Shown: piece by piece, positions 1 to 44,617 of the stretch
Layout: the number at the start of each line of letters is the position of its first letter
Position numbering within the stretch: position 1 is the stretch's first letter
Origin: an uncultured bacterium
GTDB taxonomy: Bacteria > Patescibacteriota > Patescibacteriia > Patescibacteriales > UBA12465
DNA length: 64,000 bases
NCBI GenBank assembly: GCA_942492765.1
Contig: OW818634.1
Span: 153,159 to 217,158 of the forward strand
Direction: 5' to 3'
Program-made: the position numbers and the translations under genes
The notes under the pieces: model-generated
Database searches by the model: none
Told to the model about the DNA's origin: nothing
Seen by the model: the letters and a program-made list of their open reading frames with translations, nothing else

Positions 1-185
1 CTGATTATCGGCATCTGCAATCCCACGTTTCGGGAAAATCTAGAGATCAGAACCGCGTCAGCCGGCAATATTTCAGAGTATCTGGTTTCTAATCTGACAT
101 CTCCGAAACTAAGCGCCAACCCGGTTTTTGCGACTTTTCTAAAAAAATCGTCGCATTTTCTTTGTGGTAAGCCTTTCTTTTCCAT
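1..185 (-). CDS. guaB: IMP dehydrogenase family protein, N-terminal fragment (gene runs off left edge)
   Basis: Not in the ORF track (no stop in window). Manual translation from ATG at 185 gives MEKKGLPQRKCDDFFRKVAKTGLALSFGDVRLETRYSEILPADAVLISRFSRNVGLQMPIIS. The GL.L.F.DV.L....SE.LP..V.L......N..L..P..S pattern is the conserved IMPDH/GMP-reductase N-terminus. Confidence 0.6.
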   Translation of the reverse strand, partial: MEKKGLPQRKCDDFFRKVAKTGLALSFGDVRLETRYSEILPADAVLISRFSRNVGLQMPII

Positions 186-240
186 TTACTATCTATTTTA
201 GGTGAATTTATTTGTGATTTTGTTGTTAAGGTAATAAAAA

Positions 241-270
241 AATATAGCATAAATGCTATATTTTTGTCAA
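241..270 (-). promoter_or_regulatory. sigma70-like promoter for guaB-like gene
   Basis: Minus strand reads TTGACA (265-270), 18 nt spacer, TATATT (241-246), about 55 nt upstream of the ATG at 185. It is a near-duplicate of the module at 1718-1746. Confidence 0.45.
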
Positions 271-309
271 ACTTATATGATTACGGCCACGGCTTAAACC
301 AGTCTTGTT

Positions 310-951
310 TTATTTAGAAAACATCTTAGCGACCCAGCCAAGCAGACTGAATGAATTTTCATGCGCTTTAACGAAAGCGTCTAATTGCTTTTGAGAATTT
401 TCCAGGGCTCTGATCTGAGTCACTAGCTCGATCCTATCCGTGCTGCTAGCGGTTTTCATCAAAAGATTTTTCAGCCTATGGACATTATTCTGAGTCATCT
501 CTATTTCGCTGCGAATCTGGCCCATATTCTTGTAATCGCTGCCCACAAGGAACGTCTTGATTGGACCTCGACCCTCTATTTTGGCGATGGCTTCCGCGGA
601 GGTGCTGGCTGAATCGCTTTGCATCCGGGCTATTCCCCTGACATCGGAGCCGATGCCTCCTTCGCGGTCAGCGACAGCCAGGAGAGATTTTACCATCGCG
701 GCGACAGCGCTACGATGCATTTCGGCATTGAGCTGCCCTTTCATGTTAGCGCTCGTAGTCGCCGCTCTATTGCCCTTAGCGGCCGTACTCGTGGCGTTGC
801 CGCGAGTCGTCGTGGCCATGCCCCGCTGTCTTTCCATATTTCTACCCCTATTTATATCAATCACATTGACGCCCTGAGCTGAAACAGCAGAAAATATCGC
901 GAAAGAAAAAATAAAAAAGAAAGCCGCGCCGGAGATGATTCTTATTTTCAT
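310..951 (-). CDS. secreted hypothetical protein
   Basis: ORF 310..1005. The internal start MKIRIISGAAFFFIFSFAIFSAVSAQG (ATG at 951) gives a clean signal peptide. The rest is helical and Ala/Ser-rich, with no recognised catalytic motif. Confidence 0.6.
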   Translation of the reverse strand: MKIRIISGAAFFFIFSFAIFSAVSAQGVNVIDINRGRNMERQRGMATTTRGNATSTAAKGNRAATTSANMKGQLNAEMHRSAVAAMVKSLLAVADREGGIGSDVRGIARMQSDSASTSAEAIAKIEGRGPIKTFLVGSDYKNMGQIRSEIEMTQNNVHRLKNLLMKTASSTDRIELVTQIRALENSQKQLDAFVKAHENSFSLLGWVAKMFSK

Positions 952-1095
952 AAAATTAATATTAATTGATAATATTTTATATATACCAATATACCATAAT
1001 AACACATTATTGGCAAAGGATTTCTAAAAATAAAAAATGATTGCTTTTGGATAGCAACCATTTTTAGAATATTAGCTAACTTTTTTTTAAAAATA

Positions 1096-1665
1096 TCAAG
1101 ACAACACGTTCTCTGCTCTCAGCTTCTTAGTCTTGGGCAATAAATTCAAAGGGATACTCTGATAAGCCAAGCCTGTCAGCATAACAGCCTTATAATAATC
1201 AGGCTCTTTAACATATAAGACCACGGTCTTATAAGAACGAGACATGCCTACGATATTATTGACGCTGGATTTCCATTTTTTTCCAGATTCTCCGCCGCCG
1301 ATTAAGACGATGGCTATGACCTCCTCGCTGCTTACCGGCAACCTGTTAAGGCAGCTCTCAATCAATTCAGGCGCATTATTCCATCCATTAGGCTCATTAG
1401 TGTGGACTGCCATGGCGTGAAAAGTCTTTCCTCGCGAAGAGTGAGAACGGATTTCGCCTTTTTCGAATCTGATATTTCTCAGTTCAGGCCAATAATCACC
1501 GCAAATTTCGGCCGCGAAACCGGTATCGTTATTGAATCGACCTTCTGAATTAGGATAATTGACAGCGAAGGCGATATGATCCGCTGGCGTTTCAAAAATA
1601 TTTCCCTGGATGCATAATAATGGCTCCTGGAAACCAAGCAACGACTTGAATTTCGCAATATTCAT
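1096..1665 (-). CDS. hypothetical protein, possibly macro-domain-like
   Basis: 189-aa ORF. GNIFETPADHIAFAVNYPNSEGRFNNDTGFAAEI and IVLIGGGESG loosely resemble the macro-domain GDIT..DAIVNAAN...GGG.A.AI and P.IgtG.yG motifs. The product call is weak. Confidence 0.55.
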   Translation of the reverse strand: MNIAKFKSLLGFQEPLLCIQGNIFETPADHIAFAVNYPNSEGRFNNDTGFAAEICGDYWPELRNIRFEKGEIRSHSSRGKTFHAMAVHTNEPNGWNNAPELIESCLNRLPVSSEEVIAIVLIGGGESGKKWKSSVNNIVGMSRSYKTVVLYVKEPDYYKAVMLTGLAYQSIPLNLLPKTKKLRAENVLS

Positions 1666-1717
1666 TTCTTATATCCTCCATCTTTAAGTTAGTATTATGT
1701 TTTTAAAGTAATAAAAA

Positions 1718-1746
1718 AATATATCATTCGGACACATTTTTGTCAA
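1718..1746 (-). promoter_or_regulatory. sigma70-like promoter
   Basis: Minus strand reads TTGACA (1741-1746), 17 nt spacer, TATATT (1718-1723), upstream of the ATG at 1665. An AGATGGAGGA Shine-Dalgarno precedes the start. Confidence 0.45.
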
Positions 1747-1760
1747 TTGAACCAAAAGGC

Positions 1761-2039
1761 TTATTCAAAAGAAATAATCTGTATTCCTTTCTCCTTAATA
1801 TCTTTCTCGCTCCACCATAAGTCTTGAAGCTTGAATTTTCTCAAATAGGTAACTTCTTTTTCAAGCGCTCGCCCAGTAGCTTTTCTGGTTTCTGGATCGG
1901 CCGAAGTATATTCTTCCAATACCAAGGTGTCTCCAGGCTCAATGTCAAAGTCATTGAGCCGCAGCTCATATTTCTTTTTACCGTCGAGAATATCTTGGAA
2001 ATATTCAGGCAAGACCTTCTTTATGATTCGTTTAGACAT
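1761..2039 (-). CDS. ASCH-superfamily protein (DUF3850-like)
   Basis: From MSKRIIKKVLPEYFQDILDGKKKYELRLNDFDIEPGDTLVLEEY. This matches the DUF3850 pattern (K..PEyF....G.K.fE.R.ND.d...GD.L.L.Ey). The start at 2039 is preferred over the ORF-track start at 2078. Confidence 0.65.
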   Translation of the reverse strand: MSKRIIKKVLPEYFQDILDGKKKYELRLNDFDIEPGDTLVLEEYTSADPETRKATGRALEKEVTYLRKFKLQDLWWSEKDIKEKGIQIISFE

Positions 2040-2065
2040 ATTTTTATACAAAATAAACAGGAAAC

Positions 2066-2248
2066 CTATTTTTTCCAATTCCTTATTAGGCCAGCAAGAC
2101 CGATAATAAACAGAATCAGCCCTATCAATTGCGCGCCAGGACTATCATCATATCCGCCGTATACGAACATGAACACGCCAAATAATATCGCGAAAGTGAA
2201 ATATAATATTTTTATATAATATCTTTTCATATAGCTTAATATTAGCAC
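2066..2248 (-). CDS. small membrane protein (2 TM)
   Basis: 60-aa ORF with two hydrophobic helices (ILYFTFAILFGVFMFVYGG, LIGLILFIIGLAGLI). No homology recognised. Confidence 0.4.
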   Translation of the reverse strand: MLILSYMKRYYIKILYFTFAILFGVFMFVYGGYDDSPGAQLIGLILFIIGLAGLIRNWKK

Positions 2249-2313
2249 TCCTTGTTCTGGATTTCAATAAAAAACGAGCGATTTTAATCTACTCGTTTAT
2301 TTCAGCAGCCCAG

Positions 2314-2886
2314 CTATTTATGATCTTTTTTCACATAGATGCCGGATAAGCCGCGACCTAATTGATTTGAATCCATTCCGTTGCCCACGACCCATTCCGG
2401 TCCGACTGTCCATGCTAAATATTTCAAATCAAATTCTAATGGAGCATGATTCGTTTTTATCAGCAGCGTGCAATACTGGATTGAACGCGGCGGCTCCTTC
2501 AGGTTCAGAAGATACTTATTCAAAAAATTCAAAGTATCTCCGCGATCGATGATGTCCTCAATGACTATCACATCTCTGTTCTCAAGACCAAGGCGCGGAT
2601 GGTTAACAATCTCGACATCTCCGCCGCTCTCATCGCTTCCATAACTCTTGAGAGCGATAGTATCGACGATATGATAGCAACCGATCTTTTCCAGGGCTCG
2701 CGATAGATCAACTCCGAGATATAAGCCGCCGTTTAAGACTATTAGCAATACGGGCGGATTATCGGGATTTGGGTAGTCAGACCTGATTCTCTGCGCGAAT
2801 TCGCTAACTTTTCTCATTATCTCTCTGCGGCCGAAAAGATGTTCGAACAAAACTCCGTGGAGCTTTATCTGTTTTTTCTTGCTCAT
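2314..2886 (-). CDS. hpt: hypoxanthine(-guanine) phosphoribosyltransferase
   Basis: PRPP-binding motif VIVIEDIIDRGDTLNFL, LLIVLNGGLYLGVDL and C-terminal VVGNGMDSNQLGRGL are typical of HGPRT. Confidence 0.85.
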   Translation of the reverse strand: MSKKKQIKLHGVLFEHLFGRREIMRKVSEFAQRIRSDYPNPDNPPVLLIVLNGGLYLGVDLSRALEKIGCYHIVDTIALKSYGSDESGGDVEIVNHPRLGLENRDVIVIEDIIDRGDTLNFLNKYLLNLKEPPRSIQYCTLLIKTNHAPLEFDLKYLAWTVGPEWVVGNGMDSNQLGRGLSGIYVKKDHK

Positions 2887-2896
2887 CTTTCAAATT

Positions 2897-3529
2897 TTAT
2901 TTAGTTCCATAAAGCCTATCCCCCGCATCGCCTAATCCCGGGAAAATATAGCCATTCTCTAATAATTTTTCGTCCAAAGCCGCGCAAAATATCTGCACGT
3001 CAGGATGATCGTTAAAAATTCTGCTAATCCCAACTTCACAAGCCACTAGGCACATGAATTTGATATTTTTTACCCCTTTAGCCTTTAACAAATTTATGGC
3101 GCAAGAGGCTGAGCCGCCAGTAGCTAGCATGGGGTCGAGCAGAATAGCATCGCGTTTCGAGCAATCATCCGGTAATTTATTATAATACACTACCGGCTGT
3201 AAGCTCTTCTCATCGCGAAAGATTCCTAAATGCCCGACTTTTAAGGTAGGCATGATCTTTAACATGCCAGGCACCATGCCGTCGCCGGCTCTCCAGACCG
3301 CAACGATAAATGGCTTTTCCTCGGAAACGATTCTAACCGAAGCTTTCCCCATTGGAGTTATTACTTCCGTGGCAACTAAAGGCATATCCTTAGTCACTTC
3401 ATAACTCATAATCATGGTTATTTCCTCCACTAATCTTCTGAATTCTTCTCGGCCGGTTTCCTTATTTCTTAGAATGGCCATTTTGTCCTGAATTAAAGGA
3501 TGGCCCAAGACTACGAAATTCTTTTTCAT
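2897..3529 (-). CDS. upp: uracil phosphoribosyltransferase
   Basis: HPLIQDKMAILRNKETGREEFRRLVEEIT, DPMLATGGSA and the C-terminal YIFPGLGDAGDRLYGTK are full-length Upp signatures. Confidence 0.9.
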   Translation of the reverse strand: MKKNFVVLGHPLIQDKMAILRNKETGREEFRRLVEEITMIMSYEVTKDMPLVATEVITPMGKASVRIVSEEKPFIVAVWRAGDGMVPGMLKIMPTLKVGHLGIFRDEKSLQPVVYYNKLPDDCSKRDAILLDPMLATGGSASCAINLLKAKGVKNIKFMCLVACEVGISRIFNDHPDVQIFCAALDEKLLENGYIFPGLGDAGDRLYGTK

Positions 3530-3594
3530 GATTTAAGGGTTTAAATTAGACAATTTTATTTTCTGGAAGATTACCAAAGTTAAATAAAAAAATT

Positions 3595-3858
3595 TCAAAA
3601 CACCTCTGCTTCGCAAGGATATTTAGTTATACAGTTGGCATCCAGCATAACTAATTCCCCGCCCTTTCTGCCGATAAGAAGACCGCGCCTTTGAACTTCA
3701 GACATGAATTGGCCTACTGTGCTTTTGAAGCTTAACCCCTCTGTATCTAAAGTGATAGACGCCGCGGGTTCATCATAACTTATATTAGGATAGAGATATC
3801 CTTTCTGTTCTTTAACGAACGCAACCCCTTGGGGATTGAGAGAGAATGTAAGTTTCAT
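3595..3858 (-). CDS. hypothetical protein
   Basis: 87-aa ORF preceded by a strong SD (AAGGAGGAG, 3866-3874) and a predicted promoter. No recognised family. Confidence 0.5.
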   Translation of the reverse strand: MKLTFSLNPQGVAFVKEQKGYLYPNISYDEPAASITLDTEGLSFKSTVGQFMSEVQRRGLLIGRKGGELVMLDANCITKYPCEAEVF

Positions 3859-3914
3859 TTATGCTCCTCCTTAGTTTATTTAATTGTTAAAGTAATCAAA
3901 ATGATTGACAGATA

Positions 3915-3943
3915 ACTATAATAGTTTCGGTAGAATAAGTCAA
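3915..3943 (-). promoter_or_regulatory. sigma70-like promoter
   Basis: Minus strand reads TTGACT (3938-3943), 17 nt spacer, TATAGT (3915-3920), upstream of the 3858 start. Confidence 0.45.
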
Positions 3944-3945
3944 TA

Positions 3946-4563
3946 TTAAAAGCTAGTCTTTTGCATTAAAGCAACAAATTTTTCTTTAACTCTCGACCAG
4001 GTAAAATCATTATGTTTTCTCTCTTCTTCGGTTAATTCAGAATATGTTTTATTGAAGCTTGGACAGAGCCAGAGGCTTGCAAGCCAAAATCCAGGCATGA
4101 TCATATCTTTATCATACTCTTTCTGCAGATATCCTTTTTCTCCATTTTGTAAAAACGAAAACATCAATTCCCCTTTATAAGCTACTGCTATGGCTTCATT
4201 CCACAGCACCGTTCTATCTTCTTTTTCGTAAGGTTCCATCATCTTTACCATCAGATTTAATCTATCTATCTCAGTGGCGGCATTGCCGGCAAAACGATGA
4301 GTTAATAACCCATTCCAATTATTGCCAAGAGCCGGTATGGTCACACCTCCGTCGGAAGCGACAGCATAGCCATCAAAAGCAGAAGAATAGGCTAGCGCTT
4401 TTATAATGGCATTCTCTTCAAAATTATTGCCGTTTTCTTCTATGTTTATATCTAAGTTTATATCTTCGATAGAAAATAACTGGAAAGAATCGAGACCATC
4501 AAAAAGCCATGACAACTTTTCTTTCTTTGACGGATTAGTCGTCCCTAATAATACTTTTGCCAT
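3946..4563 (-). CDS. Ham1/RdgB-like non-canonical purine NTP pyrophosphatase family protein
   Basis: N-terminal LLGTTNPSKKEKL (compare TGN.GK..E), EENGNNFEENAIIKA and ASDGGVTIPALG...THRFAG parallel the ITPase motifs E.tG.tFeeNA.iKA and DDSGL.v.aL...pGvysaRyaG. Confidence 0.6.
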   Translation of the reverse strand: MAKVLLGTTNPSKKEKLSWLFDGLDSFQLFSIEDINLDINIEENGNNFEENAIIKALAYSSAFDGYAVASDGGVTIPALGNNWNGLLTHRFAGNAATEIDRLNLMVKMMEPYEKEDRTVLWNEAIAVAYKGELMFSFLQNGEKGYLQKEYDKDMIMPGFWLASLWLCPSFNKTYSELTEEERKHNDFTWSRVKEKFVALMQKTSF

Positions 4564-4570
4564 AAAGATT

Positions 4571-5494
4571 CTAAGATAGCTTCTTTATTTTATTGAACTT
4601 GTATGCCCCGATAACGATCGGCAAAGCTAGGGTCAAAAAATAATATATATAAACATCGATCTTATAATAGTCAACCGCTTTGAATAGCTTGACTAAGAAA
4701 AAATAATCCAAAGCGATTGCCATGATTGTCCAAATAACACCCAAGCCGATATAGCAGGTAAATGATTCCCTCTTAATTTTTTTAAATAACACCCAAAAGG
4801 TCGCGATCAGCGCGATCGGCATGATATACCAGCCGATAAGCTCCTTGGGCGCAAAGGCAAAGAATATTATCCCTAAGATATACCCGAAAAGCCAAAGAAT
4901 TAGCCCCCAAAAGATAGTGTTTAAAAATATTTTTCCTTTATTCATCTCTACGCTTATAATATAATCCCACCCTGGTTGCCAAGCTTTTATTTTTCTCCAA
5001 TCATCAGCAAAAGCTTGTTCCCATGTTTTATTTTTCAATAAAACATCTAGAGACAGCTGTGGAGCCTTATGGCCGACAATAGCTACGGATTGTCCGTCAT
5101 AGTTCTCTTTTAGAAAATCGATAAAACCTTCTAGCCGTTCTTTTACATCTTCATAAGATTCTCCTTCTGAAAATTTTTCTGTAATATTCTTCTCTTGCAT
5201 CGGTTCAACAATATCAGAAGATTTGCCATTATACTTACCATAATTACATTCTCTTAATCTTTTGTCTTGAATTATTTTTACTTTATCTTTAAAAGTTAAT
5301 TCGGCTGATTTCACAGCTCTTTTTAAATCAGAACAAAAGACCGCATCAAAATGTTTATTCTTTATTTGGTCAATCAAATCGATCGATTGCTTAACGCCCA
5401 GCTCAGAAAGCTCTACATCAGACCAACCTGACGAAATATTTTTCTCATTATCAGTTGTGGTGCCATGAACAAAATAAGTTATTTTTATACTCAT
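4571..5494 (-). CDS. histidine phosphatase (phosphoglycerate-mutase family) fused to a C-terminal multi-TM domain
   Basis: N-terminus ITYFVHGTTTDNEKNISSGWSDVELSELGVKQ (RHG-type His phosphatase motif variant) and VGHKAPQ. Residues from about 185 to the end form 4 predicted TM helices. Confidence 0.75.
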   Translation of the reverse strand: MSIKITYFVHGTTTDNEKNISSGWSDVELSELGVKQSIDLIDQIKNKHFDAVFCSDLKRAVKSAELTFKDKVKIIQDKRLRECNYGKYNGKSSDIVEPMQEKNITEKFSEGESYEDVKERLEGFIDFLKENYDGQSVAIVGHKAPQLSLDVLLKNKTWEQAFADDWRKIKAWQPGWDYIISVEMNKGKIFLNTIFWGLILWLFGYILGIIFFAFAPKELIGWYIMPIALIATFWVLFKKIKRESFTCYIGLGVIWTIMAIALDYFFLVKLFKAVDYYKIDVYIYYFLTLALPIVIGAYKFNKIKKLS

Positions 5495-5511
5495 ATAGTA
5501 ATATTTTAAAA

Positions 5512-6276
5512 TTATTTAGAATTCATAATCTTCAACAATTTAGAGTGAAGATATTTATTAGCAGATAAAATTTCTCTATCTTTTAAAGACCAGGGCTCAC
5601 CTTTAAAATTAGTAACTTTACACCCCGCTTCAGCAAGGATTAGTGAGGCAGCGGCATAATCCCACAACCCTCCGCCCTGAGAAGCCCGCCAGTCCCTTCG
5701 GCCATCAGCTTGATACATGGCGCTAACCCCAGCCGATCCGAAAGCGCTCATCCAAAATTTTTCTTTTTCCGAATACTTTAATAATTTGCGTAAATTTGCT
5801 GCATTTTTTTCTGTCGTATTAACACTGGTCAACCCCCAACTGTTCTTCCAGGTTTTTTGTTGTGAGCAATTAACTTTTTTGCCATTTAAAAATGCACCTT
5901 TCCCTTTTTTAGCAAAGAATAATTCATCTGTACAGGGATTATATATAGTGGCTAATTCCATTTTTCCATTACGAGCCAGGCCAATCATTACAGCAAACAT
6001 CGGTGTTCTGGTAAGAAAGTTACGGGTACCGTCCAGTGGATCTATAATCCAACAATATTCAGCTCCATTTTGGTGTTCGCCTGTTTCTTCGGATATTATG
6101 GCATGTGACGGATATTTCTTTTTTATGGCTTTTGTAATAATATTATTTGCCGTTAAATCGGCCTCGGTGACAACATCCGCCGCATCTTCTTTCGTATACT
6201 TAACTCCAACTTTCCCAAATTTCTTTAGAATAGCAATACCCGCCTCTTTGGTTATTTGTTTAATAAATTTTTCCAT
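5512..6276 (-). CDS. suhB: inositol monophosphatase family protein
   Basis: Metal-binding motifs IISEETGE and WIIDPLDGTRNF, plus C-terminal WDYAAASLILAEAG. Confidence 0.85.
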   Translation of the reverse strand: MEKFIKQITKEAGIAILKKFGKVGVKYTKEDAADVVTEADLTANNIITKAIKKKYPSHAIISEETGEHQNGAEYCWIIDPLDGTRNFLTRTPMFAVMIGLARNGKMELATIYNPCTDELFFAKKGKGAFLNGKKVNCSQQKTWKNSWGLTSVNTTEKNAANLRKLLKYSEKEKFWMSAFGSAGVSAMYQADGRRDWRASQGGGLWDYAAASLILAEAGCKVTNFKGEPWSLKDREILSANKYLHSKLLKIMNSK

Positions 6277-6281
6277 ATTAT

Positions 6282-6962
6282 TTATTCCAACCTTCTTTTT
6301 TTGCGATTAATAGTTATTTCCGTTATTTCTATTTGCTTTGGCAATCTTAGCAGATATAAAACTATATTAGCCACGTCTTTTGGGTCCATCCACTCCGTCG
6401 CGTCTTCTATTTTCTTGCCATAATCTTTTTCATGCATCTTAGTATTCATGCCGCCGCAATGAACGTATATCACCCTACTTTTTGTTTTAGTTAATTCTAA
6501 CCCAATATTATAAGATCCGCCCCTCAATCCGTATTTAGTTGATGTGTATGCCAACTGATCATTAAAACCAGCTTTCAAATCCGCTGTCGTACCAATGTTT
6601 AATATATCAGCCTCATTCTTTACAATGTTATCAAACAATGAAGATAGAAAGTAAAGTGGCGCAATCGCGTTAATTCTAAATGCTCTTTCAAATTTAGGAA
6701 ATGTAATTTCATTTATTTTCTCCATCGCTACGATAGCAGCGCAATTAATGATAACATCAAAATCATTGTGTATTTTTTTTACTATGTTAATAGCATTATC
6801 AATATCTTTCTCTACGGATAAATCACAAGTAATATTAACAATACCCGATAAATCACAAGCTGTTCTGCTCACATTAATTACTTCTATTTTTTCTTTTAGA
6901 CACAGGCTAGCAATTGCCTTGCCGAGACCATCGCTAGCGCCTAATATAATAATTTTTTTCAT
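6282..6962 (-). CDS. short-chain dehydrogenase/reductase (SDR)
   Basis: N-terminal Rossmann motif ILGASDGLGKAIA and catalytic YTSTKYGLRG (YxxxK). Confidence 0.8.
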   Translation of the reverse strand: MKKIIILGASDGLGKAIASLCLKEKIEVINVSRTACDLSGIVNITCDLSVEKDIDNAINIVKKIHNDFDVIINCAAIVAMEKINEITFPKFERAFRINAIAPLYFLSSLFDNIVKNEADILNIGTTADLKAGFNDQLAYTSTKYGLRGGSYNIGLELTKTKSRVIYVHCGGMNTKMHEKDYGKKIEDATEWMDPKDVANIVLYLLRLPKQIEITEITINRKKRRLE

Positions 6963-6967
6963 AAATT

Positions 6968-7423
6968 TTATATAATGAAATTAGCTATAATTAAAACAAA
7001 TCCCGCACCCAATAAACAACCAGCCATCTTCCCGACAGCGGATTTGAGCATGGTTCTTTCTTCAGCAATCAATCTGGACCGTAATTTTTCGGCCATTTGT
7101 CCCTCAAATATGCCTGCAATACCATCCGTAACGGCATTGCCGACAACTCCGCCGAGGATTGCTCCTGCTACTCCCGCAAAATGCCCGCCAAATATAGCTA
7201 ATACAGCTAAAATTCCATTATCTATAATACCAAAAAAAATATCCGGTAAAACAGATTTCAAATTAATTCTAAAAGGAATGAGCGAAACAAGACAAAGTAA
7301 GGCTAAAATAATTAAGACTAAGCCCATCCATTCATTATTATCAATAAATGATATGCTGACCGCGGTTATGACGATACAAAGCGTTAAAATATTCAATACG
7401 GACAAAATAAATTTTTGATTCAT
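6968..7423 (-). CDS. integral membrane protein (Gly-rich TM helices)
   Basis: 151-aa ORF with 4 hydrophobic segments and Gly-zipper-like GGHFAGVAGAILGGVVGNAVTDGIAGIF. The opposite-strand ORF 6975..7418 is judged a shadow. Confidence 0.55.
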   Translation of the reverse strand: MNQKFILSVLNILTLCIVITAVSISFIDNNEWMGLVLIILALLCLVSLIPFRINLKSVLPDIFFGIIDNGILAVLAIFGGHFAGVAGAILGGVVGNAVTDGIAGIFEGQMAEKLRSRLIAEERTMLKSAVGKMAGCLLGAGFVLIIANFII

Positions 7424-7455
7424 AAATTTTTATTATTTCATAGCGCAACAGCCAG

Positions 7456-8475
7456 TCATCTATTTTCCACAAAAATCTGGCCAGCCGGCGTGGCACACTG
7501 AGGAGGGTTTGACTTCATAATCGAAAAACCGGCCTTAACGCAAGTATCATAATCAGTTATCTGTTTTAACAGCTCGTCACATTTTTCTTTGCTAACCATA
7601 TCGCTCATCACTATACATTTTTTAATCTGAGCTGAGAGGCTCTCAGCTTGAACTGAGCCCCATGTAATTGTCTGAACGATCCTATCAACCGTGGCGTCAA
7701 GATCAAAAGCCTCTCTCTCGCCAGTGCAAGCTTTGTTTTGCTCTTCGTCATAATTACCACAATTAGAATAGCGCAGAGCCAAGCCAACGTCGATGAGCTT
7801 GCCATCCCGGGCGGTAACATAAGTGTATGATGAATAAACGCTGCCAGCCGCACCTTCGTGCTTAACAGCTACGCAGTAAGTTCTGTGATCGACCAATCTC
7901 TCAGAGGTTATTGCGGATATACTGCTTATTTCCGGCGGCGTAGTTTTGCAGGAATATACCCCTGTTTTTATCGTTACAACTGGCGGCCATTCCGCAGCGC
8001 TAATATATTTTGCCAATAGCTCTTTAGGGTATTGAAATGTTACACCTTCGTCGGTTGTAGTTGCTGTCCACAAATCATTGGCAGGTTTAGAATTTTTGCT
8101 ATTCTCGGTGATAGTCCAGATTACGTAAAAACGACTATATTGGCGTCTGGTCATAATAATATCGCGGTCGGGAGATTTATAAAAATAACCAGAGCCCATC
8201 TGTTCAACGAACTCATAGCCTTTATTCTTCAAAAAACTATCAACGGAGTCCCCGCCCTCTTTGCTTTTGGTCAGATACTTATTATCTGAATCCGACAATT
8301 TAGCCATATCCGACCCACCAAGAGTTAACTGGGCGATACCTTTAATCTGTGGCCAAGGATTACCTTCTTGAAAGATGACCGGGGAGTAGAAAAATACAAA
8401 AATGCCCGTCGCTAAAAAGATAGAAGAAATGAGAAATAAATTTTTTTTGTTTTTCGAAGAGCGCCCTGGAATCAT
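7456..8475 (-). CDS. membrane-anchored hypothetical protein
   Basis: The start at MIPGRSSKNKKNLFLISSIFLATGIFVFFY (ATG 8475) removes the overlap with the upstream gene. It has an N-terminal anchor and a Cys-containing extracytoplasmic domain. No family recognised. Confidence 0.6.
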   Translation of the reverse strand: MIPGRSSKNKKNLFLISSIFLATGIFVFFYSPVIFQEGNPWPQIKGIAQLTLGGSDMAKLSDSDNKYLTKSKEGGDSVDSFLKNKGYEFVEQMGSGYFYKSPDRDIIMTRRQYSRFYVIWTITENSKNSKPANDLWTATTTDEGVTFQYPKELLAKYISAAEWPPVVTIKTGVYSCKTTPPEISSISAITSERLVDHRTYCVAVKHEGAAGSVYSSYTYVTARDGKLIDVGLALRYSNCGNYDEEQNKACTGEREAFDLDATVDRIVQTITWGSVQAESLSAQIKKCIVMSDMVSKEKCDELLKQITDYDTCVKAGFSIMKSNPPQCATPAGQIFVENR

Positions 8476-8479
8476 AGAA

Positions 8480-8830
8480 TTAAATTTGAAGATTATTCTT
8501 TGCCTGCCTTTTATACCCATCTATCAAATACAGAATGCCTGGAATAAGAGGGGCGGCCAAATTAACACTAAGATTTGCTTCCGTCAGCAGTCCGACGATA
8601 AGACCGATTCCAATTGAAATAATTACGATCCATCCTCCGACTTTAGGATATTTCCAGCCCAAGGCTAAACCGATAAATACCAATGGCATCATAGCCAAGG
8701 CGACATTTTCCCACAACGAATAACTAGATTTAGCAAAAGGCAACGGGTTACCATAACCGAAATAAAATGGCAAGGCGAAAATTAAGATGCTTAGCGCCAA
8801 TATTCTGGCGATCCATTTGATTGTTTTCAT
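8480..8830 (-). CDS. small integral membrane protein (4 TM)
   Basis: 116-aa hydrophobic ORF, tightly packed between neighbouring genes. Confidence 0.55.
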   Translation of the reverse strand: MKTIKWIARILALSILIFALPFYFGYGNPLPFAKSSYSLWENVALAMMPLVFIGLALGWKYPKVGGWIVIISIGIGLIVGLLTEANLSVNLAAPLIPGILYLIDGYKRQAKNNLQI

Positions 8831-8835
8831 ATGGT

Positions 8836-9402
8836 TTATATTAAATTAACTAAATTTTTTATATCTAATAATAGCTCGGGAAATTCTATAAAACCAGATG
8901 CGATATTAAAATGACCAGCGCCTTTGATAACTTTTATATTGGTATTGAGCTTCTTAGCCAACTCATAAGCCTTTTCCAGCGGAACATATGGGTCATTATC
9001 AGAGTGATACAAATATATTTTTTGGACATTATTCTTTATTCTCTTCCAATCAAACTTTCTATTTACAAATTCCTTATTTAATTCATCAAACTCATCATTA
9101 CCCAATAAACCAGGAAACCCTGAAACTAAAAATATAGATTTAATAGGTAAATTAAGAAGTTCTACATACGATAAAATAAAAGAGACGCCCAAACTATGGC
9201 CAATCAAAATAGTTTCTGGTCCGATATTATTGCTTATCCTTCCGATCACCTTTAACCAGGATTCTAAATTTTGATTTTCTGGAGTCGGAAAGGATGGCAC
9301 ATCAACCTTATATCCTATGTTTTCTAATTCTTTTTTTAACCAAGGAAACCAATTTTCGCTTGGGCTACCATAGGTGCCATGAATTATAATAGCGCTTTTC
9401 AT
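8836..9402 (-). CDS. alpha/beta hydrolase, YdeN/RBBP9-like serine hydrolase
   Basis: IIHGTYGSPSENWFPWLKKELE, nucleophile elbow GHSLG, and late D and H residues (SDNDPYVP, GAGHF). Size is about 190 aa, as in the YdeN family. Confidence 0.75.
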   Translation of the reverse strand: MKSAIIIHGTYGSPSENWFPWLKKELENIGYKVDVPSFPTPENQNLESWLKVIGRISNNIGPETILIGHSLGVSFILSYVELLNLPIKSIFLVSGFPGLLGNDEFDELNKEFVNRKFDWKRIKNNVQKIYLYHSDNDPYVPLEKAYELAKKLNTNIKVIKGAGHFNIASGFIEFPELLLDIKNLVNLI

Positions 9403-9584
9403 ATGATTTAATTATAGCATAAAAATGATAATTAACTCGAATCAGATTCAAACTAGGATGCCTTTATTTACAATCGATTTTACTTATTTTACTCCAACAA
9501 AAAACATGAACTAAATCATGTTTCTTTATATTTTAGCTAATGTTTAATAATTCGTATCGGTCATAGACACCACAATGCTGTTAA

Positions 9585-9613
9585 CTCTGGGGCTGGGGTA
9601 TAGTTGGAACGTC
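9585..9613 (-). repeat. tRNA-3'-end-like remnant, copy A (GGGGTATAGTTGGAACG core)
   Basis: The sequence ctctggggctggggtatagttggaacgtc lies immediately 3' of the GDPD stop. On the minus strand it is followed by the hairpin+T-run terminator at about 9495-9530. It shares a 17-nt core with the copies at 11413 and 12208, with 1 mismatch. Confidence 0.5.
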
Positions 9614-9628
9614 TTTATAAAATCTAGT

Positions 9629-10318
9629 CTATATAAATAATCTAGGAAGGTCAGTTCCTATTTCATCGACCTCCATCGATACTAAACTATCATATAATTC
9701 TTTGCTGTTTACCCCATAAGCATAGACTTTTTTATTTGAACTATGTGCCTTATCAACAAAATCTTTAGTTATCATTTCAGAAAAAGGAGCTAAAAAGTCC
9801 AACTTAACGGAGTCCACTAAATTCCATATATTTATCATCACTTCATCTGTCCAAAAAAGAAGACCTATTTTTAATTTTGGATTTATTTTTTTTATTTCTT
9901 CAAGCAAATGAGTTTTAAAAGAAGTGATAAAGACCGTTTTTTCAATATTATTTCTCAAAATTATTTCATTCACGGGCAATGGAGTCCCGTCTCCTTTTAA
10001 CTCAATTTGAAAATCAATCTTATTTTTGCAAACATTAATTACTTCTTGCAAGGTCGGAATTTTTCCACCATCTTTGTAATTCAGTTGCTGTATTTGATCT
10101 ATTGTCATATCACTTACTAAACCGACGCCATCCGTCAAATTTGAAACCTCCTTATCATGAAAAACTACAACTTCATTATCCTTTGTTAATCTAACATCCA
10201 TTTCTGCTCTATCGCAACCAATTTCAATGGCCAACTTAAATGATTCTAATGTATTTTCCGTTGCATATCCCGCCGCACCCTTATGTCCTACAATTATTGG
10301 CATATTATTTATTATCAT
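9629..10318 (-). CDS. ugpQ: glycerophosphodiester phosphodiesterase
   Basis: IVGHKGAAGYATENTLESFKLAIEIGCDRAEMDVRLTKDNEVVVFHD is the GDPD catalytic N-terminal signature (H.G...ENT...F, E.D, HD). Confidence 0.85.
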   Translation of the reverse strand: MIINNMPIIVGHKGAAGYATENTLESFKLAIEIGCDRAEMDVRLTKDNEVVVFHDKEVSNLTDGVGLVSDMTIDQIQQLNYKDGGKIPTLQEVINVCKNKIDFQIELKGDGTPLPVNEIILRNNIEKTVFITSFKTHLLEEIKKINPKLKIGLLFWTDEVMINIWNLVDSVKLDFLAPFSEMITKDFVDKAHSSNKKVYAYGVNSKELYDSLVSMEVDEIGTDLPRLFI

Positions 10319-10325
10319 GATTATT

Positions 10326-11237
10326 TTATAAAACCAAATTTATTGGCTCACCATTTAAATATGCCTTAACATTATCAATCATCATATTACTTGCTTGTCT
10401 ATCGGTAACATCAGTATTATAAGCGATATGCGGAGTGACTAATACTTTTGGATATTGGGATAATCTAATATACAGGGGGTCAGCCACATTTCCAACTTGG
10501 ATTGAACCACAATCAATACCGACGCCTGCTAAAATATTGTTATCTAAAGACTCTAGCATAGCTTCAATGTCATATATTTGTTGACCTGTGACGGTTACAA
10601 AATAAGCTCCTTTTTTAAAAGAGCTAAAAAACTTTTTATTCAACAACCCAGTCGTTTCTTGATTTAAAGCTAAGGCATCAACAACGATGTCGGCGTTTTT
10701 TATGGAATCTAATAAATTATCGTCGCGAGTAAAACATCTGACATTCATTTCTAACATCTCACAAATCCTCCCTACCCTTGAGCCAATATTGCCCTTGCCC
10801 AAAATAGTAATATTTTTACCCTTCAATCCCTTTTCTGACTCCGGAGTAATCCCCACCGGAAGATCTAAATTATTGATATATTTTGGGAATTTTCTAAATA
10901 AATTTAAAATCATAGCTATCACCCATTCGCTAACAGCCTCCTTATTACAGCCAGGAGTTCTTGAAACAAGAATATTTTTAGCCTTTAATTTATTCGAATC
11001 CAAAAATCCTGTTCCTACAAAAGGAACAGAAATAAACTTATTTTCCAATTCATATAATTTGTCCGAAGTCATACCAAAACGACCACTACAAATAACGTCG
11101 GCATCTTGAGATCTTTCTAGCCATTCTTCGGGAGATTTTGGTAGATTATCATAATAGACAACGTCGCCAAGTTTATTCAATCTCTCTTTCTCTTCTTGAT
11201 TTAACCCCAAATCTTGGGTAACTACTATTTTTTTCAT
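10326..11237 (-). CDS. D-isomer-specific 2-hydroxyacid dehydrogenase family protein
   Basis: NAD-binding ILGKGNIGSRVG, a catalytic-region R/E/H pattern ending in VTPHIAYNT, and typical size (303 aa). Confidence 0.85.
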   Translation of the reverse strand: MKKIVVTQDLGLNQEEKERLNKLGDVVYYDNLPKSPEEWLERSQDADVICSGRFGMTSDKLYELENKFISVPFVGTGFLDSNKLKAKNILVSRTPGCNKEAVSEWVIAMILNLFRKFPKYINNLDLPVGITPESEKGLKGKNITILGKGNIGSRVGRICEMLEMNVRCFTRDDNLLDSIKNADIVVDALALNQETTGLLNKKFFSSFKKGAYFVTVTGQQIYDIEAMLESLDNNILAGVGIDCGSIQVGNVADPLYIRLSQYPKVLVTPHIAYNTDVTDRQASNMMIDNVKAYLNGEPINLVL

Positions 11238-11283
11238 ATAAAATTAGTATATACTATATTTTTAAAACTTTGAAGCCTAAAAA

Positions 11284-11302
11284 CTGGGGAATGGATTCGA
11301 AC
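11284..11302 (-). repeat. tRNA-Gln 3'-end-like remnant
   Basis: ctggggaatggattcgaac compared with the tRNA-Gln gene segment ctcggggatagggattcgaac (13150-13170). The T-loop GGATTCGAAC is identical and the acceptor strand is nearly so. Confidence 0.45.
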
Positions 11303-11412
11303 TAATTTAATTTAATAAAAATGGACTATTGGTTTAAACAATGAATTCATAGCCAAAATTTTCGAACTATTTTACTTAACAAAAATGAGCCTTTCAGCTC
11401 ATTCTTGTATAG

Positions 11413-11444
11413 TTGCTCGGAGTTTGGGATATAGTTGGAACGAC
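11413..11444 (-). repeat. tRNA-3'-end-like remnant, copy B
   Basis: The sequence ttgctcggagtttgggatatagttggaacgac is followed on the minus strand by the hairpin aatgagc-tgaaa-ggctcat plus a T-run (11385-11410). Confidence 0.5.
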
Positions 11445-11517
11445 TGTTCATTTGTACAATTAATCTAGCACTCCTTTGATATTATAAACCGGAATATACA
11501 TACCAATTATTTATTAC

Positions 11518-11546
11518 TTGACATAATATTATATATATGTTATATT
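11518..11546 (+). promoter_or_regulatory. sigma70-like promoter
   Basis: TTGACA (11518-11523), 17 nt spacer, TATATT (11541-11546), upstream of the 11596 start. Confidence 0.5.
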
Positions 11547-11595
11547 ATATATTATTAAGATCTTTTAAAATTACATATCTCTAAATCCTACATAA

Positions 11596-12156
11596 ATGAA
11601 AAGCCTGTACTATCTTGGAGTAATGTTTACAACGTTAAACATCTTCGCAAGCAAAACCGTTGTCGCCCAAGTCCCTGTTCCGTTTGGCAATCCTGCTATC
11701 CTTTACGATGTGGCTCATCGGCAACAAGAAAATAAAAAAAATAATAATCAAGTTAAAAGTAACGCAAGTGATGATTATTGGTTTTATTACACCGAAACTA
11801 AGCGTAACGCAGAAAAAAACATCGCACTACTTTTGAAAAAAACCTATCAAGCTCTTCAACTAGCATCAAATGATACAAAAACCAAACGTATCAAAACTGA
11901 AGGAACCATAATCTTTAGTATTAAACCAGGAAAATTCCAGATTAAAAATCAAAAAGGCAAAGCCGAAGAATTCGTAGGAACATTTTACGGTTACAATTGT
12001 CGAGTAAGCAAAGATTACATTTTTGTATCAGGTTATGGTCCTAAATTCAATTTTTCTGCTGGCCGATTTCATGCAGACTTATTTAGACTTATAATAACTT
12101 TGGATGATTTGCTGACAAAAATGCTTGCAGATATGGACCGTACTAAGACAAAGTGA
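11596..12156 (+). CDS. secreted hypothetical protein
   Basis: 186-aa ORF with signal peptide MKSLYYLGVMFTTLNIFASKTVVAQ. Lys/Asn-rich, no family recognised. Confidence 0.55.
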   Translation: MKSLYYLGVMFTTLNIFASKTVVAQVPVPFGNPAILYDVAHRQQENKKNNNQVKSNASDDYWFYYTETKRNAEKNIALLLKKTYQALQLASNDTKTKRIKTEGTIIFSIKPGKFQIKNQKGKAEEFVGTFYGYNCRVSKDYIFVSGYGPKFNFSAGRFHADLFRLIITLDDLLTKMLADMDRTKTK

Positions 12157-12207
12157 GTAAAAAATTGCTTACTCATAAAGAAGTGGACTCATCCCGCTTC
12201 TTTTTTA

Positions 12208-12240
12208 TTTGCTCCGAGGTTGGGATATAGTTGGAACGGC
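12208..12240 (-). repeat. tRNA-3'-end-like remnant, copy C
   Basis: tttgctccgaggttgggatatagttggaacggc has an 18-nt identity (tgggatatagttggaacg) with copy B. A hairpin+T-run lies adjacent at 12178-12207. Confidence 0.5.
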
Positions 12241-12349
12241 GTTTGATACTAGCCGCGTTAGCAACATTTCTTTATAACTATATTTAATGAACATTAATTT
12301 ACAAATTTGACCAAATAATCTATAATTATAATACTTATCAAATGTATAT

Positions 12350-12991
12350 ATGAAATTTGAATTTCAAGAAAAGACTGACGAAAAACAACTAAAATGGCAA
12401 CAAATTAGACATGAGGTTGAAAACATTAAAGATAAATTAGGAAAAGGTATAGATGAAAATATAAAATCTGTCGTAATTTCTTTGAAAGCCAATAATTTTG
12501 GTACAACCGGCTCTTGTGAAGGACATAAAGACTGGGCTTATCCCTGGCCATGGATTGAAGTTGAGTCCCCTTTATCAGAAGATCTACTAGATAATCCGAG
12601 ATATAAAGAGCTTGGTGCTAAAAGCAGGGCCTCTCGGCAGGGCAGTGATGTGATGTCTAAGGAAGATAATCAAGAATTAGAATCTTTAATTAAAAGACAA
12701 AAACAAGAAAATGAAAAAGAGTACCAACGACTTCAAGGATTACTGGCGGAATTCTACGCGCTACAATCAAAACAAAATAATGATAATTTGGCGAATAGTT
12801 CGAAATTAGGGATAATAAAGGGATCATGGAACCAGAGCCATCTCCAACCGCTTGAGGGTCCGGATTTAAGACCACAGGAGGCTCAAGGATTATGGTCTGA
12901 TGAAGAAAAAGAACAAAAACTAATATCGTATAGGCAAGAAATTAATAGATTTTCAGAATTTCTTAAAAATAAATTTTTTGATAAAAAATAA
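12350..12991 (+). CDS. hypothetical protein (charged, coiled-coil-rich)
   Basis: 213-aa ORF with no signal peptide and no recognised motif. A terminator hairpin (aaaaagagc-tttt-tagctcttttt) follows at about 13014-13038. Confidence 0.55.
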   Translation: MKFEFQEKTDEKQLKWQQIRHEVENIKDKLGKGIDENIKSVVISLKANNFGTTGSCEGHKDWAYPWPWIEVESPLSEDLLDNPRYKELGAKSRASRQGSDVMSKEDNQELESLIKRQKQENEKEYQRLQGLLAEFYALQSKQNNDNLANSSKLGIIKGSWNQSHLQPLEGPDLRPQEAQGLWSDEEKEQKLISYRQEINRFSEFLKNKFFDKK

Positions 12992-13045
12992 AATTTGATC
13001 ATGGAGGAAACAAAAAAGAGCTTTTTAGCTCTTTTTTGCATATCT

Positions 13046-13063
13046 GCTCGGGGATAGGGATTC
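13046..13063 (-). repeat. exact 18-nt duplicate of the tRNA-Gln 3' end (att-like direct repeat / pseudo-tRNA fragment)
   Basis: gctcggggatagggattc at 13046-13063 is identical to 13149-13166, inside the tRNA-Gln gene. Similarity decays just beyond (ggtgaatccc vs ggttcgaatccc). Confidence 0.8.
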
Positions 13064-13149
13064 ACCCTTCGCTTCGCTTCGGGTATAAACTTCTCATCCC
13101 TTTCTCAAAATAAATAAAAATACACCCAAAGGGGTGTATTTTTATTTAG

Positions 13150-13220
13150 CTCGGGGATAGGGATTCGAACCCCAATAAACAGGACCAGAACCTGTTGTCC
13201 TACCGTTAGACGATCCCCGA
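13150..13220 (-). tRNA. tRNA-Gln (anticodon CUG)
   Basis: Minus strand folds as TCGGGGA TC GTCTAACGGTAGGAC A ACAGG TTCTGGT CCTGT TTAT TGGGG TTCGAAT CCCTA TCCCCGA G. This is a full cloverleaf of 71 nt with the U1:A72 pair typical of bacterial tRNA-Gln. CCA is not encoded. A terminator hairpin lies downstream (13118-13146). Confidence 0.9.
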
Positions 13221-13224
13221 ATGA

Positions 13225-13671
13225 TTATTTTATTTTTCCAGCGACCTTTTCCCAGGACTCTACTCCGCCCTTCCTTACTCTGAACAGAGGGCGAGGATCC
13301 AGCTTAACTAGTCCTTTCAGCTCATTATAGCGGCTTCTATCGCGCTTAACCAGCTTCTTTAGCAAATGCGCGAATTCGTACTCTATCTGGCCACTGCTTA
13401 CTTTAATATTTTTTAATTTTTTTTTCAAGAGGCCAGCTTTGACCTGATTAAACTTATAGCCGCGGCTAGCCGCTTCTTGATATATCCCCAGTAAATAAGC
13501 CTTAATATGATCTACTGGCCTTTCTTGCTCTCTGAACCTTATCAATTGCGGATGACTCTTATAGCCTTTTGTCTCCCCTTCTAAGACTTTCTTAGCCAGG
13601 AGACCCTCTCGCCAAACCGCCAAAAGACCTTGGCGGTCTAAGTATCTAGGCGATAAGCTCCAAAGGCGCAT
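13225..13671 (-). CDS. pyrimidine dimer DNA glycosylase (endonuclease V / DenV family)
   Basis: MRLWSLSPRYLDRQGLLAVWREGLLAKKVLEGETKGYKSHPQLIRF matches the conserved Pyr_excise N-terminus (MR.WsLhP.YLD..GL.A.WRE.LLA..VL.G.TKGY..HPQL.RF). Confidence 0.8.
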   Translation of the reverse strand: MRLWSLSPRYLDRQGLLAVWREGLLAKKVLEGETKGYKSHPQLIRFREQERPVDHIKAYLLGIYQEAASRGYKFNQVKAGLLKKKLKNIKVSSGQIEYEFAHLLKKLVKRDRSRYNELKGLVKLDPRPLFRVRKGGVESWEKVAGKIK

Positions 13672-37992: not shown

Positions 37993-38076
37993 GCCGCGAT
38001 GGCGGAATTGGTAGACGCGCACGACTCAAAATCGTGTGGGGGAGACTTCATGAGGGTTCGATTCCCTCTCGCGGCA
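37993..38076 (+). tRNA. tRNA-Leu (anticodon CAA)
   Basis: Acceptor GCCGCGA/TCGCGGC, anticodon arm CACGA-CTCAAAA-TCGTG, 15-nt variable arm (class II), T-arm GAGGG-TTCGATT-CCCTC, discriminator A. 84 nt, CCA not encoded. Confidence 0.9.
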
Positions 38077-38081
38077 CATAA

Positions 38082-44236: not shown

Positions 44237-44617
44237 GTTATTAGAGCAGCCGTAAGCCGGATTCTGTTCTAGCGATCATTTATCTAGGCCGGCCATTGCT
44301 GACAGGCTCAAGCGAGCTACTTTTTCTAACCCGCGAACGGATTAGTTTGCTCTTGCTTCTGATAGGGTTTACCACGGCATCTCCGTCGCCGGAGGCCGAA
44401 ACCGGTAGCCCCGAAGGACATCCAGCCACTTTTCACCTTTGATTCTGTCAAATAAATTCCAGAATTAGTATAGTCTCTGTGGCACTTTCCCTAATCTGCC
44501 TTGCGGCAGACCGGTGGGCGTTACCCACTATCATATTTGCTTATAAATAAACAAATTGCGAAGTCCGGACTTTCCTCTCTATTAAAAATAGAGCAATCGC
44601 CCGCTTACTCTAATAAC
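44237..44617 (-). ncRNA. rnpB: RNase P RNA, bacterial type A
   Basis: Minus strand: P1 GTTATTAGAG pairs with the 3' CTCTAATAAC. P3 hairpin CTCTATT-TTTA-ATAGAG. P4 GAGGAAAGTCCGGAC. GTGCCACAGAGA. GCTTGAGCC...GGCCTAGATAAATGA...ACAGAATCCGGCTTAC matches the universally conserved 3' core. Confidence 0.93.

Follow-up and report, generated by a model that had tools for sequence, protein, structure and literature searches.

A tandem array of small gene cassettes at the 3' end of a tRNA-Gln gene in Patescibacteria and its probable link to large serine recombinases

Here we describe the DNA that follows the tRNA-Gln(CTG) gene in a 64-kb stretch from an uncultured bacterium of the Patescibacteria (the whole stretch is called the window), where a 27-nt site that resembles the end of the tRNA is repeated between small groups of genes. 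The tRNA gene is located at 13149..13220 on the minus strand (ARAGORN; Rfam tRNA, 56.6 bits) and the genes upstream of it encode a Pyr_excise-domain protein, LysRS and GreA. The GC content is 44-49% on this LysRS/GreA core side of the tRNA against 30-34% across 9001-13000, with the boundary at the tRNA itself. An Rfam e-value scan of 9300-13300 found the true tRNA-Gln only, and none of the remnants described below is a full tRNA pseudogene.

A family of repeats had been proposed here in a first-pass annotation of the window, and the repeats are real. The 17-mer GGGATATAGTTGGAACG has two exact matches, at 11426-11442 and 12222-12238, and a third with one mismatch at 9595-9611, all on the plus strand, where about 0.15 matches are expected by chance in the window; three matches were reached in 0 of 100 shuffles. 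The complete conserved unit is 27 nt long and is present in three co-oriented copies (12211-12237, 11415-11441 and a degenerate one at 9584-9610), all of them downstream of the tRNA-Gln(CTG) and in its orientation. Scanning both strands of the 64-kb window revealed no further copies of the 27-nt unit, even at low scores of its position weight matrix (PWM), for which a threshold of 14 was used and the highest null score was 8.4.

Followed from the tRNA outwards, the array begins with a palindromic A-tract/hairpin/T-tract terminator directly 3' of the tRNA (13111..13148; fold -20.1 kcal/mol, z = -6.8). The terminator opens a unit without an open reading frame (ORF) at 13064-13148, which is closed by an exact 18-nt copy of the tRNA-Gln 3' end (13046..13063, minus strand; GAATCCCTATCCCCGAGC (GCTCGGGGATAGGGATTC)) that starts in the middle of the T-loop and was absent from the list of the first-pass annotation. 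Cassette A (12211-13045) has a minus-strand body (12238..13045) with a terminator hairpin at 13010-13039 followed by a reversed ORF of 213 amino acids (12350-12991, plus strand, no Pfam match), and its 3' end is copy 3 of the 27-nt site (12211..12237, minus strand; GTTCCAACTATATCCCAACCTCGGAGC; PWM score 42.2). Cassette B (11415-12210) likewise consists of a minus-strand body (11442..12210), in which a hairpin at 12177-12203 precedes a reversed ORF of 186 amino acids with a signal-like N-terminus (11596-12156, plus strand, no Pfam match), and of copy 2 at its 3' end (11415..11441, minus strand), whose sequence GTTCCAACTATATCCCAAACTCCGAGC is the family consensus (PWM score 48.1, maximum 49.1). 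Cassette C (9584-11414) opens with a terminator hairpin (11379..11408; fold -18.8 kcal/mol, z = -6.3), continues with a possible degenerate copy of the tRNA end (11284..11302, minus strand; GTTCGAATCCATTCCCCAG) and with two minus-strand genes, a D-isomer 2-hydroxyacid dehydrogenase (10326..11237; Pfam PF02826, PF00389) and a glycerophosphodiester phosphodiesterase (GDPD; 9629..10318; Pfam PF03009), and ends 3' in the degenerate copy 1 (9584..9610, minus strand; GTTCCAACTATACCCCAGCCCCAGAGT), whose PWM score is 27.1 against the highest null score of 8.4. The distal flank (9403..9583, minus strand) follows. The sites do delimit gene cassettes, as had been claimed, and bracket the dehydrogenase and GDPD genes and two ORFs without a Pfam match. 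In what follows the 27-nt copies are called P-type and the copies with the spacing of the tRNA are called B-type, after the half-sites proposed below; the attB-type (B) half-site itself would be the last 22 nt of tRNA-Gln (13149-13170, minus strand; GTTCGAATCCCTATCCCCGAGC).

The hairpin with a T-run that had been reported behind each copy is real, although its strength varies. On the minus strand, strong hairpins follow the tRNA (z = -6.8), the 13046 remnant (z = -4.3) and copy 2 (z = -6.3). After copy 3 the hairpin is weak on this strand (z = -1.4) and scores only as a plus-strand terminator, at 12177-12203, and for copy 1 the nearest hairpin is about 60 nt away, at 9499-9526 in the distal flank. 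The fourth remnant that had been described at 11284-11302 shares an exact 10-mer (GTTCGAATCC) with the T-loop region of the tRNA, while its 22-mer is six edits away, like chance matches elsewhere in the window. A tRNA remnant is therefore possible and plausible from its position, although not significant alone, and cassette C may be divided by it into a unit without ORFs and one with two genes. The segments 13046-13148 and 11284-11414 would then be of one kind, short and ORF-less, starting with a terminator and ending in a tRNA-type remnant with no 5-nt insert; in the first, the T-loop is shortened by 2 nt (GGGT--GAATCCC). Judged from its sequence, the window holds three cassettes and two tRNA-type remnants.

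The relation between the 27-nt site and the tRNA can be seen by aligning them. The site is GTTCCAA followed by 5 nt and TCCCAAACTCCGAGC, whereas the tRNA-Gln end is GTTCGAA followed directly by TCCCTATCCCCGAGC. With a single 5-nt gap after the T-loop block, 18 of 22 positions are identical, a value that 0 of 200,000 shuffles reach, which agrees with the earlier claim that the units derive from a tRNA-Gln 3' end. The 5-nt insertion relative to the tRNA end holds for all four subfamilies of the motif.

The same arrangement was looked for in relatives (loci are numbered with the letter L). Homologues of the LysRS beside the tRNA, 64-95% identical, were found in 80 Patescibacteria metagenome-assembled genomes, in 43 of which LysRS is followed by tRNA-Gln. 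A metagenome scan with the motif gave 74 loci; a tRNA was detected in 23 of them, and in 22 of these 23 it is a tRNA-Gln (CTG or TTG) located upstream of the motif on the same strand, the exception being L120 with a tRNA-Asn. Wherever the retrieved DNA includes a tRNA-Gln gene, the motif is found beside it. On contigs of 340-976 kb, the motif is confined to one neighbourhood each, linked to a tRNA. When the window and all loci were scanned with the PWM, 173 matches were obtained on the tRNA strand and one on the other, in 84 loci. The sequence of the motif is independent of each host's own tRNA T-stem variant, hence the motif travels with the inserted DNA. What had been taken for sequence decay is, as the 173 copies and the fixed 5-nt insertion relative to the tRNA end indicate, a conserved site carried by the cassettes and not a decayed tRNA end. 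A scan of viral_contigs for the motif gave two chance matches only, both inside phage ORFs. The ORF-less unit that ends at 13046-13063 has homologues in L001, L111 and L096, and B-type remnants similar to those of the window are found in L001, L003, L008 and L017.

To the right of GAGC, the junctions share only the A-tract and the hairpin and are otherwise unconserved. An inverted copy of the left half-site was not found, with only the one opposite-strand match against 173. We also considered an inverted half-site after the hairpin, as in a palindromic att site or a unit like a miniature inverted-repeat transposable element (MITE), and rejected it; such sequence is present at only about 9 of the 173 junctions, and most of these read by eye as a TTGGAA..TATAAT promoter-like stretch.

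Comparison with single relatives shows where DNA was gained. In L013 the tRNA end, ...CCCCGAGC, runs directly into a homologue of window positions 9591..9398; it follows that window 9592-13148 is extra DNA with respect to L013. The homologue of the flank 9403-9583 is located directly after tRNA-Gln in L013, L010 and L025 and after a motif in L008, and the window flank is 74-84% identical at the nucleotide level to L013 12017-12214 and 13214-13319. In L001, with a LysRS 95% identical, an extra unit is found that consists of a terminator, a gene for a 250-amino acid TIM-barrel protein and the motif CGTTCCAATTGTATCCCAGACTCCGAGC; it is placed exactly after the GAGC of the tRNA and before the sequence that follows the tRNA in the window, and L001 and the window have no other common content until a serine-hydrolase gene several kb further out. 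These sharp changes of content in L013 and L001 mean that the region is strain-variable with sharp boundaries at GAGC, and since both relatives hold other content at the same junctions, the proposal of serial insertion at the tRNA is upheld. In L013, the flank of ~130 nt (CAACAACGTTTTGGTG...terminator) is found twice, at 12025-12214 and 13190-13345, a degenerate tRNA end (gggttcgaatattactgcgggagc) having been duplicated along with it, and the two flanks enclose a single DHH-like gene. Due to this duplication, the ‘ancestral flank’ may itself be the start of another module.

The 90 units that run from motif to motif have a median length of 858 bp (10-90% range 486-2228 bp). Counting ORFs of 70 amino acids or more, 62 of the 90 hold exactly one, and 116 cassette ORFs are oriented with the tRNA and 10 against it. 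Mixed orientation had been held to argue against an integron-type array; with 116 of 126 ORFs co-oriented in the family this does not stand, and the two reversed ORFs of the window represent the minority orientation. The cargo can be described as accessory metabolism. Pfam matches include methyltransferases, NUDIX, GNAT, IMPase, EamA, a nitrilase-type hydrolase, SAICAR synthetase, GDPD, GDSL lipase and TrpR; dehydrogenases, transporters and phosphodiesterases are also found, and there is no recombinase among the cassette cargo. A reverse transcriptase (RVT_1, 335 amino acids; L134 12117-13124, with homologues in L026 and L123) recurs as cargo between sites in three arrays, and fragments judged by eye to resemble an IS30-type transposase are present in some arrays (for example, L132 1691-2059).

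The cassettes have been relocated as discrete units. A 618-bp cassette (c23), 96-100% identical between its occurrences, is found behind three different sites and before three different sequences, with the junctions exactly at GAGC. Of three cassettes that are neighbours in L001, each has homologues in a different set of loci, with the homology ending at GAGC, and cassettes c13, c25 and c26 have independent distributions. Cassette A of the window has a homologue in L152 (70% nucleotide identity), between two motifs and with other neighbours.

Clustering of the ORFs of all loci (687 ORFs in 407 clusters) shows a very diverse cargo, from which one recurrent mobility module stands out. It encodes a rolling-circle Rep (PF23343) together with a protein of 510-560 amino acids that has the Pfam domains Resolvase, Recombinase and Zn_ribbon_recom and is thus a large serine recombinase (LSR). 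LSR-bearing relatives are L101, L134, L093, L127, L002 and L007. On the opposite strand, the gene for the LSR comes directly behind either the tRNA-Gln end (in L101, L002 and L007) or a motif (in L134 and L127), and its 3' end overlaps the recombination site. Such LSR-Rep elements are bounded by the sites: the one in L101 extends from the tRNA end to a motif (7.5 kb) and the one in L134 from motif to motif (7.0 kb), and L002, one of the two closest relatives of the window (95% LysRS identity), has an LSR-Rep element at the same tRNA. One and the same left end of the element (ATTGAAGAAAAATCGC...) was found with four left partners that differ from each other but end in GAGC in every case, and one right end with four different flanks on its right. 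Every junction lies in or directly behind a shared CCGAGC(A), and the shared ends with their varying partners point to an exchange in or just after GAGC. No relatives were found in viral_contigs for either of the two LSRs tested.

The ORF of the LSR was seen to extend across the recombination site and to continue on the complement of either the tRNA 3' end or the motif, as in L101 3943-5469 (tRNA 3920-3991; reversed, tRNA-oriented coordinates), L002 11963-13612 and L134 1566-3107; the last 15-20 codons are therefore encoded by DNA left of the crossover and change on integration. Proteins of the LSR family are 490-570 amino acids long, and one database entry (P0057) is a GNAT-LSR fusion. Sister LSRs that are 68-70% identical to the L134 enzyme adjoin a tRNA-Ser(GCT) instead (L157-L160; tRNA at L158 6829-6920). 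The far end of the L157 element (6.9 kb, 1-6944) is GTTCCAA+CTACG+TCCCACCCTCTCCGCA and the tRNA-Ser end is GTTCGAA+TCCCCGCCTCTCCGCA. This sister element is an independent replicate of the 5-nt rule, in which the distal block stays constant and the proximal block follows the target tRNA, and it suggests that the LSR family was retargeted between tRNAs.

The part of the window beyond the recognisable array (1-9400) has a GC content of 34-43%, which is low down to about position 4000, and synteny with L001 picks up again only at the UPRT/HPRT genes (2314-3529). The IMPase at 5512-6276 is 93% identical to a gene that sits right after a motif in L096, and the 151-amino acid membrane protein at 6968-7423 is 86% identical to a homologue in L147 that is followed by a motif. 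The island is probably older and larger than its site-bearing part, with 1-9400 as an older portion that has lost its sites. On the other side of the tRNA-Gln, the gene between it and LysRS (13225-13671) encodes a protein of 148 amino acids whose domain is that of a pyrimidine-dimer DNA glycosylase (Pyr_excise); some relatives (L001, L002, L008) have it and others lack it. No array was found downstream of the tRNA-Leu(CAA) at 37993-38077, where there is a strong terminator, and a bacterial class A RNase P RNA is located at 44237-44613 on the minus strand (176 bits).

We consider it probable that window 9584-13148 consists of small integration modules arrayed in tandem at the 3' end of tRNA-Gln(CTG), with the two kinds of half-site, P and B, that an LSR family in Patescibacteria would use. 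A module in the orientation of the tRNA would start right after ...GAGC, carry its own A-tract/hairpin/T-tract terminator and one or two cargo genes, and end with the 27-nt site GTTCCAAYNNTATCCCARNCTCCGAGC. The 27-nt site would be the P-arm (attP-type half-site) of this LSR family and the tRNA 3' end, GTTCGAA + TCCCTATCCCCGAGC, its B-arm (attB-type half-site); we infer this because the two have the same distal and proximal blocks with a 5-bp difference in spacing, as in attB and attP of LI/A118. The distal GTTCSAA block (the T-loop), common to both arms and 5 bp further out in the P-arm, may be the target of the zinc-ribbon domain of the recombinase, and the proximal TCCC..C.CCGAGC block, also common to both, may be the recombinase-domain motif. 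The LSR would catalyse the strand exchange in or just after GAGC, that is, the discriminator base plus 1-2 nt, where the exact crossover dinucleotide would lie and by which the tRNA would stay intact. Each incoming module would bring the new terminator of the tRNA, and older modules would be displaced away from it. Cassettes without an LSR, including the three of the window, would be moved in trans by an LSR encoded elsewhere. A wider and more tentative reading is that Patescibacteria possess an integron-analogous capture system, where an LSR acting in trans may excise recombinase-less single-gene cassettes and re-insert them at tRNA-Gln, and its sisters at tRNA-Ser, with the identity of a site held only in the 5-bp spacing of the left half-site; the tRNA would then be a permanent target and every motif a donor site.

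Several points weigh against the LSR array. An LSR homologue was not found anywhere in the 64-kb window by tblastn. The sequence to the right of GAGC is unconserved, while the att sites of characterised LSRs are usually recognisable in both half-sites. Repeated insertion requires that the LSR accepts the B-arm joined to the start of the previous module, which is formally an attL and is not used by canonical LSRs. Degeneration of copy 1 and the reversed ORFs in two of the three cassettes of the window count against it too. Crossover at GAGC leaves the B-type remnants at 13046-13063 and 11284-11302 unaccounted for; they could possibly be the result of gene conversion from the tRNA, or of a second integrase that exchanges strands in the T-loop. 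Moreover, all the data are metagenome assemblies.

One alternative is that the cassettes are immobile deletion remnants of full-length LSR-Rep elements, so that only deletions and homologous recombination from one 27-nt repeat to another would still alter the arrays, and the cassettes of the window are inert relics. We regard this as unlikely, although deletion did take place: in L113 a motif is followed by 86 nt of the LSR-element left end and then by cargo, with the LSR, the Rep and a neighbouring gene deleted, and C-terminal fragments of the LSR adjoin motifs in L026, L123, L129 and L134. The degenerate copy 1 and the lack of an LSR in the window fit this explanation too, and as the L113 relic and the LSR fragments show, decay also happens. 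However, the 618-bp cassette, which carries no LSR and is almost identical in three contexts with exact GAGC junctions, favours active relocation of LSR-less cassettes over decay and shuffling alone. The bias to single, co-oriented ORFs is also unlike the outcome of random deletion, and the 27-mer is highly conserved in units that have no LSR.

The reading of the first-pass annotation, by which the copies are independently decayed duplicates of the tRNA-Gln 3' end left by tyrosine-integrase or prophage-type insertions with the crossover inside the tRNA, appears improbable. It would account for the exact 18-nt copy at 13046-13063, which begins in the T-loop as expected for a T-loop crossover, for the tRNA-type spacing at 11284-11302 and for the B-type remnants of L001, L003, L008 and L017. 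It does not account for the derived sequence and 5-nt insertion that the three main copies share with 170 copies in other species, nor for a motif that is independent of the T-stem variant of its host. In addition, no tyrosine integrase was seen among the recurrent ORF clusters and the cassette proteins scanned against Pfam, although no dedicated search of the loci was made, and those recombinases that did turn up belong to the LSRs.

A generic dispersed intergenic repeat (of the repetitive extragenic palindrome or MITE type) or a terminator- or promoter-associated motif unrelated to tRNAs can practically be dismissed, since the motif, although short, intergenic, repeated and next to hairpins, forms one array per genome downstream of tRNA-Gln with a strand bias of 173:1 and has no copies elsewhere in the window or on contigs of up to 976 kb, the two viral-contig matches being due to chance. 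A true integron, with attC sites recombined by the tyrosine recombinase IntI, is equally hard to credit: the arrays of short cassettes, which mostly hold one gene, share an orientation and end in a conserved site, do recall one, but the 27-nt site is a mimic of a tRNA end and not an R''-L''/L'-R' imperfect palindrome, it has no inverted partner, insertion occurs at a tRNA gene and not at an attI beside intI, there is no IntI next to the site, the associated recombinases are serine and not tyrosine enzymes, and each cassette opens with a terminator. Single-strand transposition of the IS200/IS605 type, in which elements with subterminal hairpins insert 3' of a short target, was considered and rejected as well; the hairpins are terminator-like and differ in sequence between cassettes, no HUH transposase accompanies them, and it is LSRs that adjoin the sites.

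Parts of the LSR array have precedents. In the LI/A118 integrase, the attP half-site is 25 bp long and the ZD (zinc-ribbon domain) motif is shifted 5 bp toward the centre in attB (Rutherford et al., PMC3783163). The Patescibacteria LSRs have the same Resolvase, Recombinase and zinc-ribbon domain set as such phage-type large serine integrases, and in both systems one half-site has a shorter and a longer version, the distal block of the latter being shifted outward by 5 bp (here the versions are ~21 and 26 bp long, as we infer). Unlike in the phage-type integrases, the target here is the 3' end of a tRNA, whose universal T-loop forms the distal block, there is no conservation of the right half-sites, the mobile units are 7-kb Rep-carrying elements or sub-kilobase cassettes and not phages, and insertion would proceed serially into a formal attL. 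Tycheposons of Prochlorococcus integrate serially at one tRNA, with new elements pushing the older ones inward, partial-tRNA repeats between the units, degenerate remnants and accessory-metabolism cargo; LSRs are in the minority there, and most elements have tyrosine recombinases, primase/helicase modules and plain partial-tRNA repeats (bioRxiv 10.1101/2020.12.28.424599). The Patescibacteria array is similar in its site-specific integration at a tRNA, its tRNA-derived repeats and its tandem accumulation; judged by a comparison of Pfam domains only, it differs from tycheposons in its dedicated tRNA mimic with five additional nucleotides, its mostly single-gene cassettes of ~0.5-1.5 kb without a recombinase, its rolling-circle Rep (PF23343) and its host, which belongs to the candidate phyla radiation (CPR).

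The likeness to integrons is one of organisation only, in that short single-ORF co-oriented cassettes end in a conserved site and the same cassette is found in different arrays and positions. Integrons use another class of recombinase and a folded attC, whereas here the site is a tRNA mimic of a double-stranded type, no integrase or Pc promoter is adjacent, and every cassette brings a terminator and, apparently, a promoter of its own. In staphylococci, staphylococcal cassette chromosome (SCC) elements such as SCCmec are inserted by the LSRs CcrAB or CcrC at the 3' end of the conserved housekeeping gene rlmH (orfX); these elements are tens of kb in size, and SCCmec composites are tandem, with short direct repeats between their parts and recombinase-less pseudo-elements that are thought to be mobilised in trans. 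Their target is thus rlmH and that of the Patescibacteria array a tRNA, and we know of no 5-bp tRNA-mimic logic described for SCC elements.

Tycheposons already provide a known case of elements that integrate serially at a tRNA and are accompanied by partial-tRNA repeats and remnants, and the spacing rule of LSR attB and attP sites is known as well. In the literature, of which our coverage is incomplete so that absence is not proven, we found no description of LSR-linked cassette arrays or of tRNA-Gln islands in Patescibacteria, nor of the combination proposed here, namely an LSR family with tRNA 3' ends as attB, a dedicated P-arm that mimics the tRNA with five additional nucleotides, and integron-like arrays of recombinase-less, single-gene cassettes below 1 kb in size, all of it in CPR bacteria.

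CPR bacteria (Patescibacteria) have tiny genomes and their acquisition of genes is little understood; the array provides a defined hotspot, a grammar of sites and a candidate enzyme family for the turnover of accessory genes. The tRNA 3' end and its mimic with five additional nucleotides illustrate in nature the rule on the spacing of attB and attP for serine integrases, and the constant T-loop block together with a proximal block that follows the target shows a way in which these enzymes may be retargeted. Should the recombinases act as proposed, the LSRs and their 22/27-nt sites could serve as integration tools in genetically intractable organisms. The cassette arrays, if the reading is true, would be a second, independent solution to integron-style gene capture.

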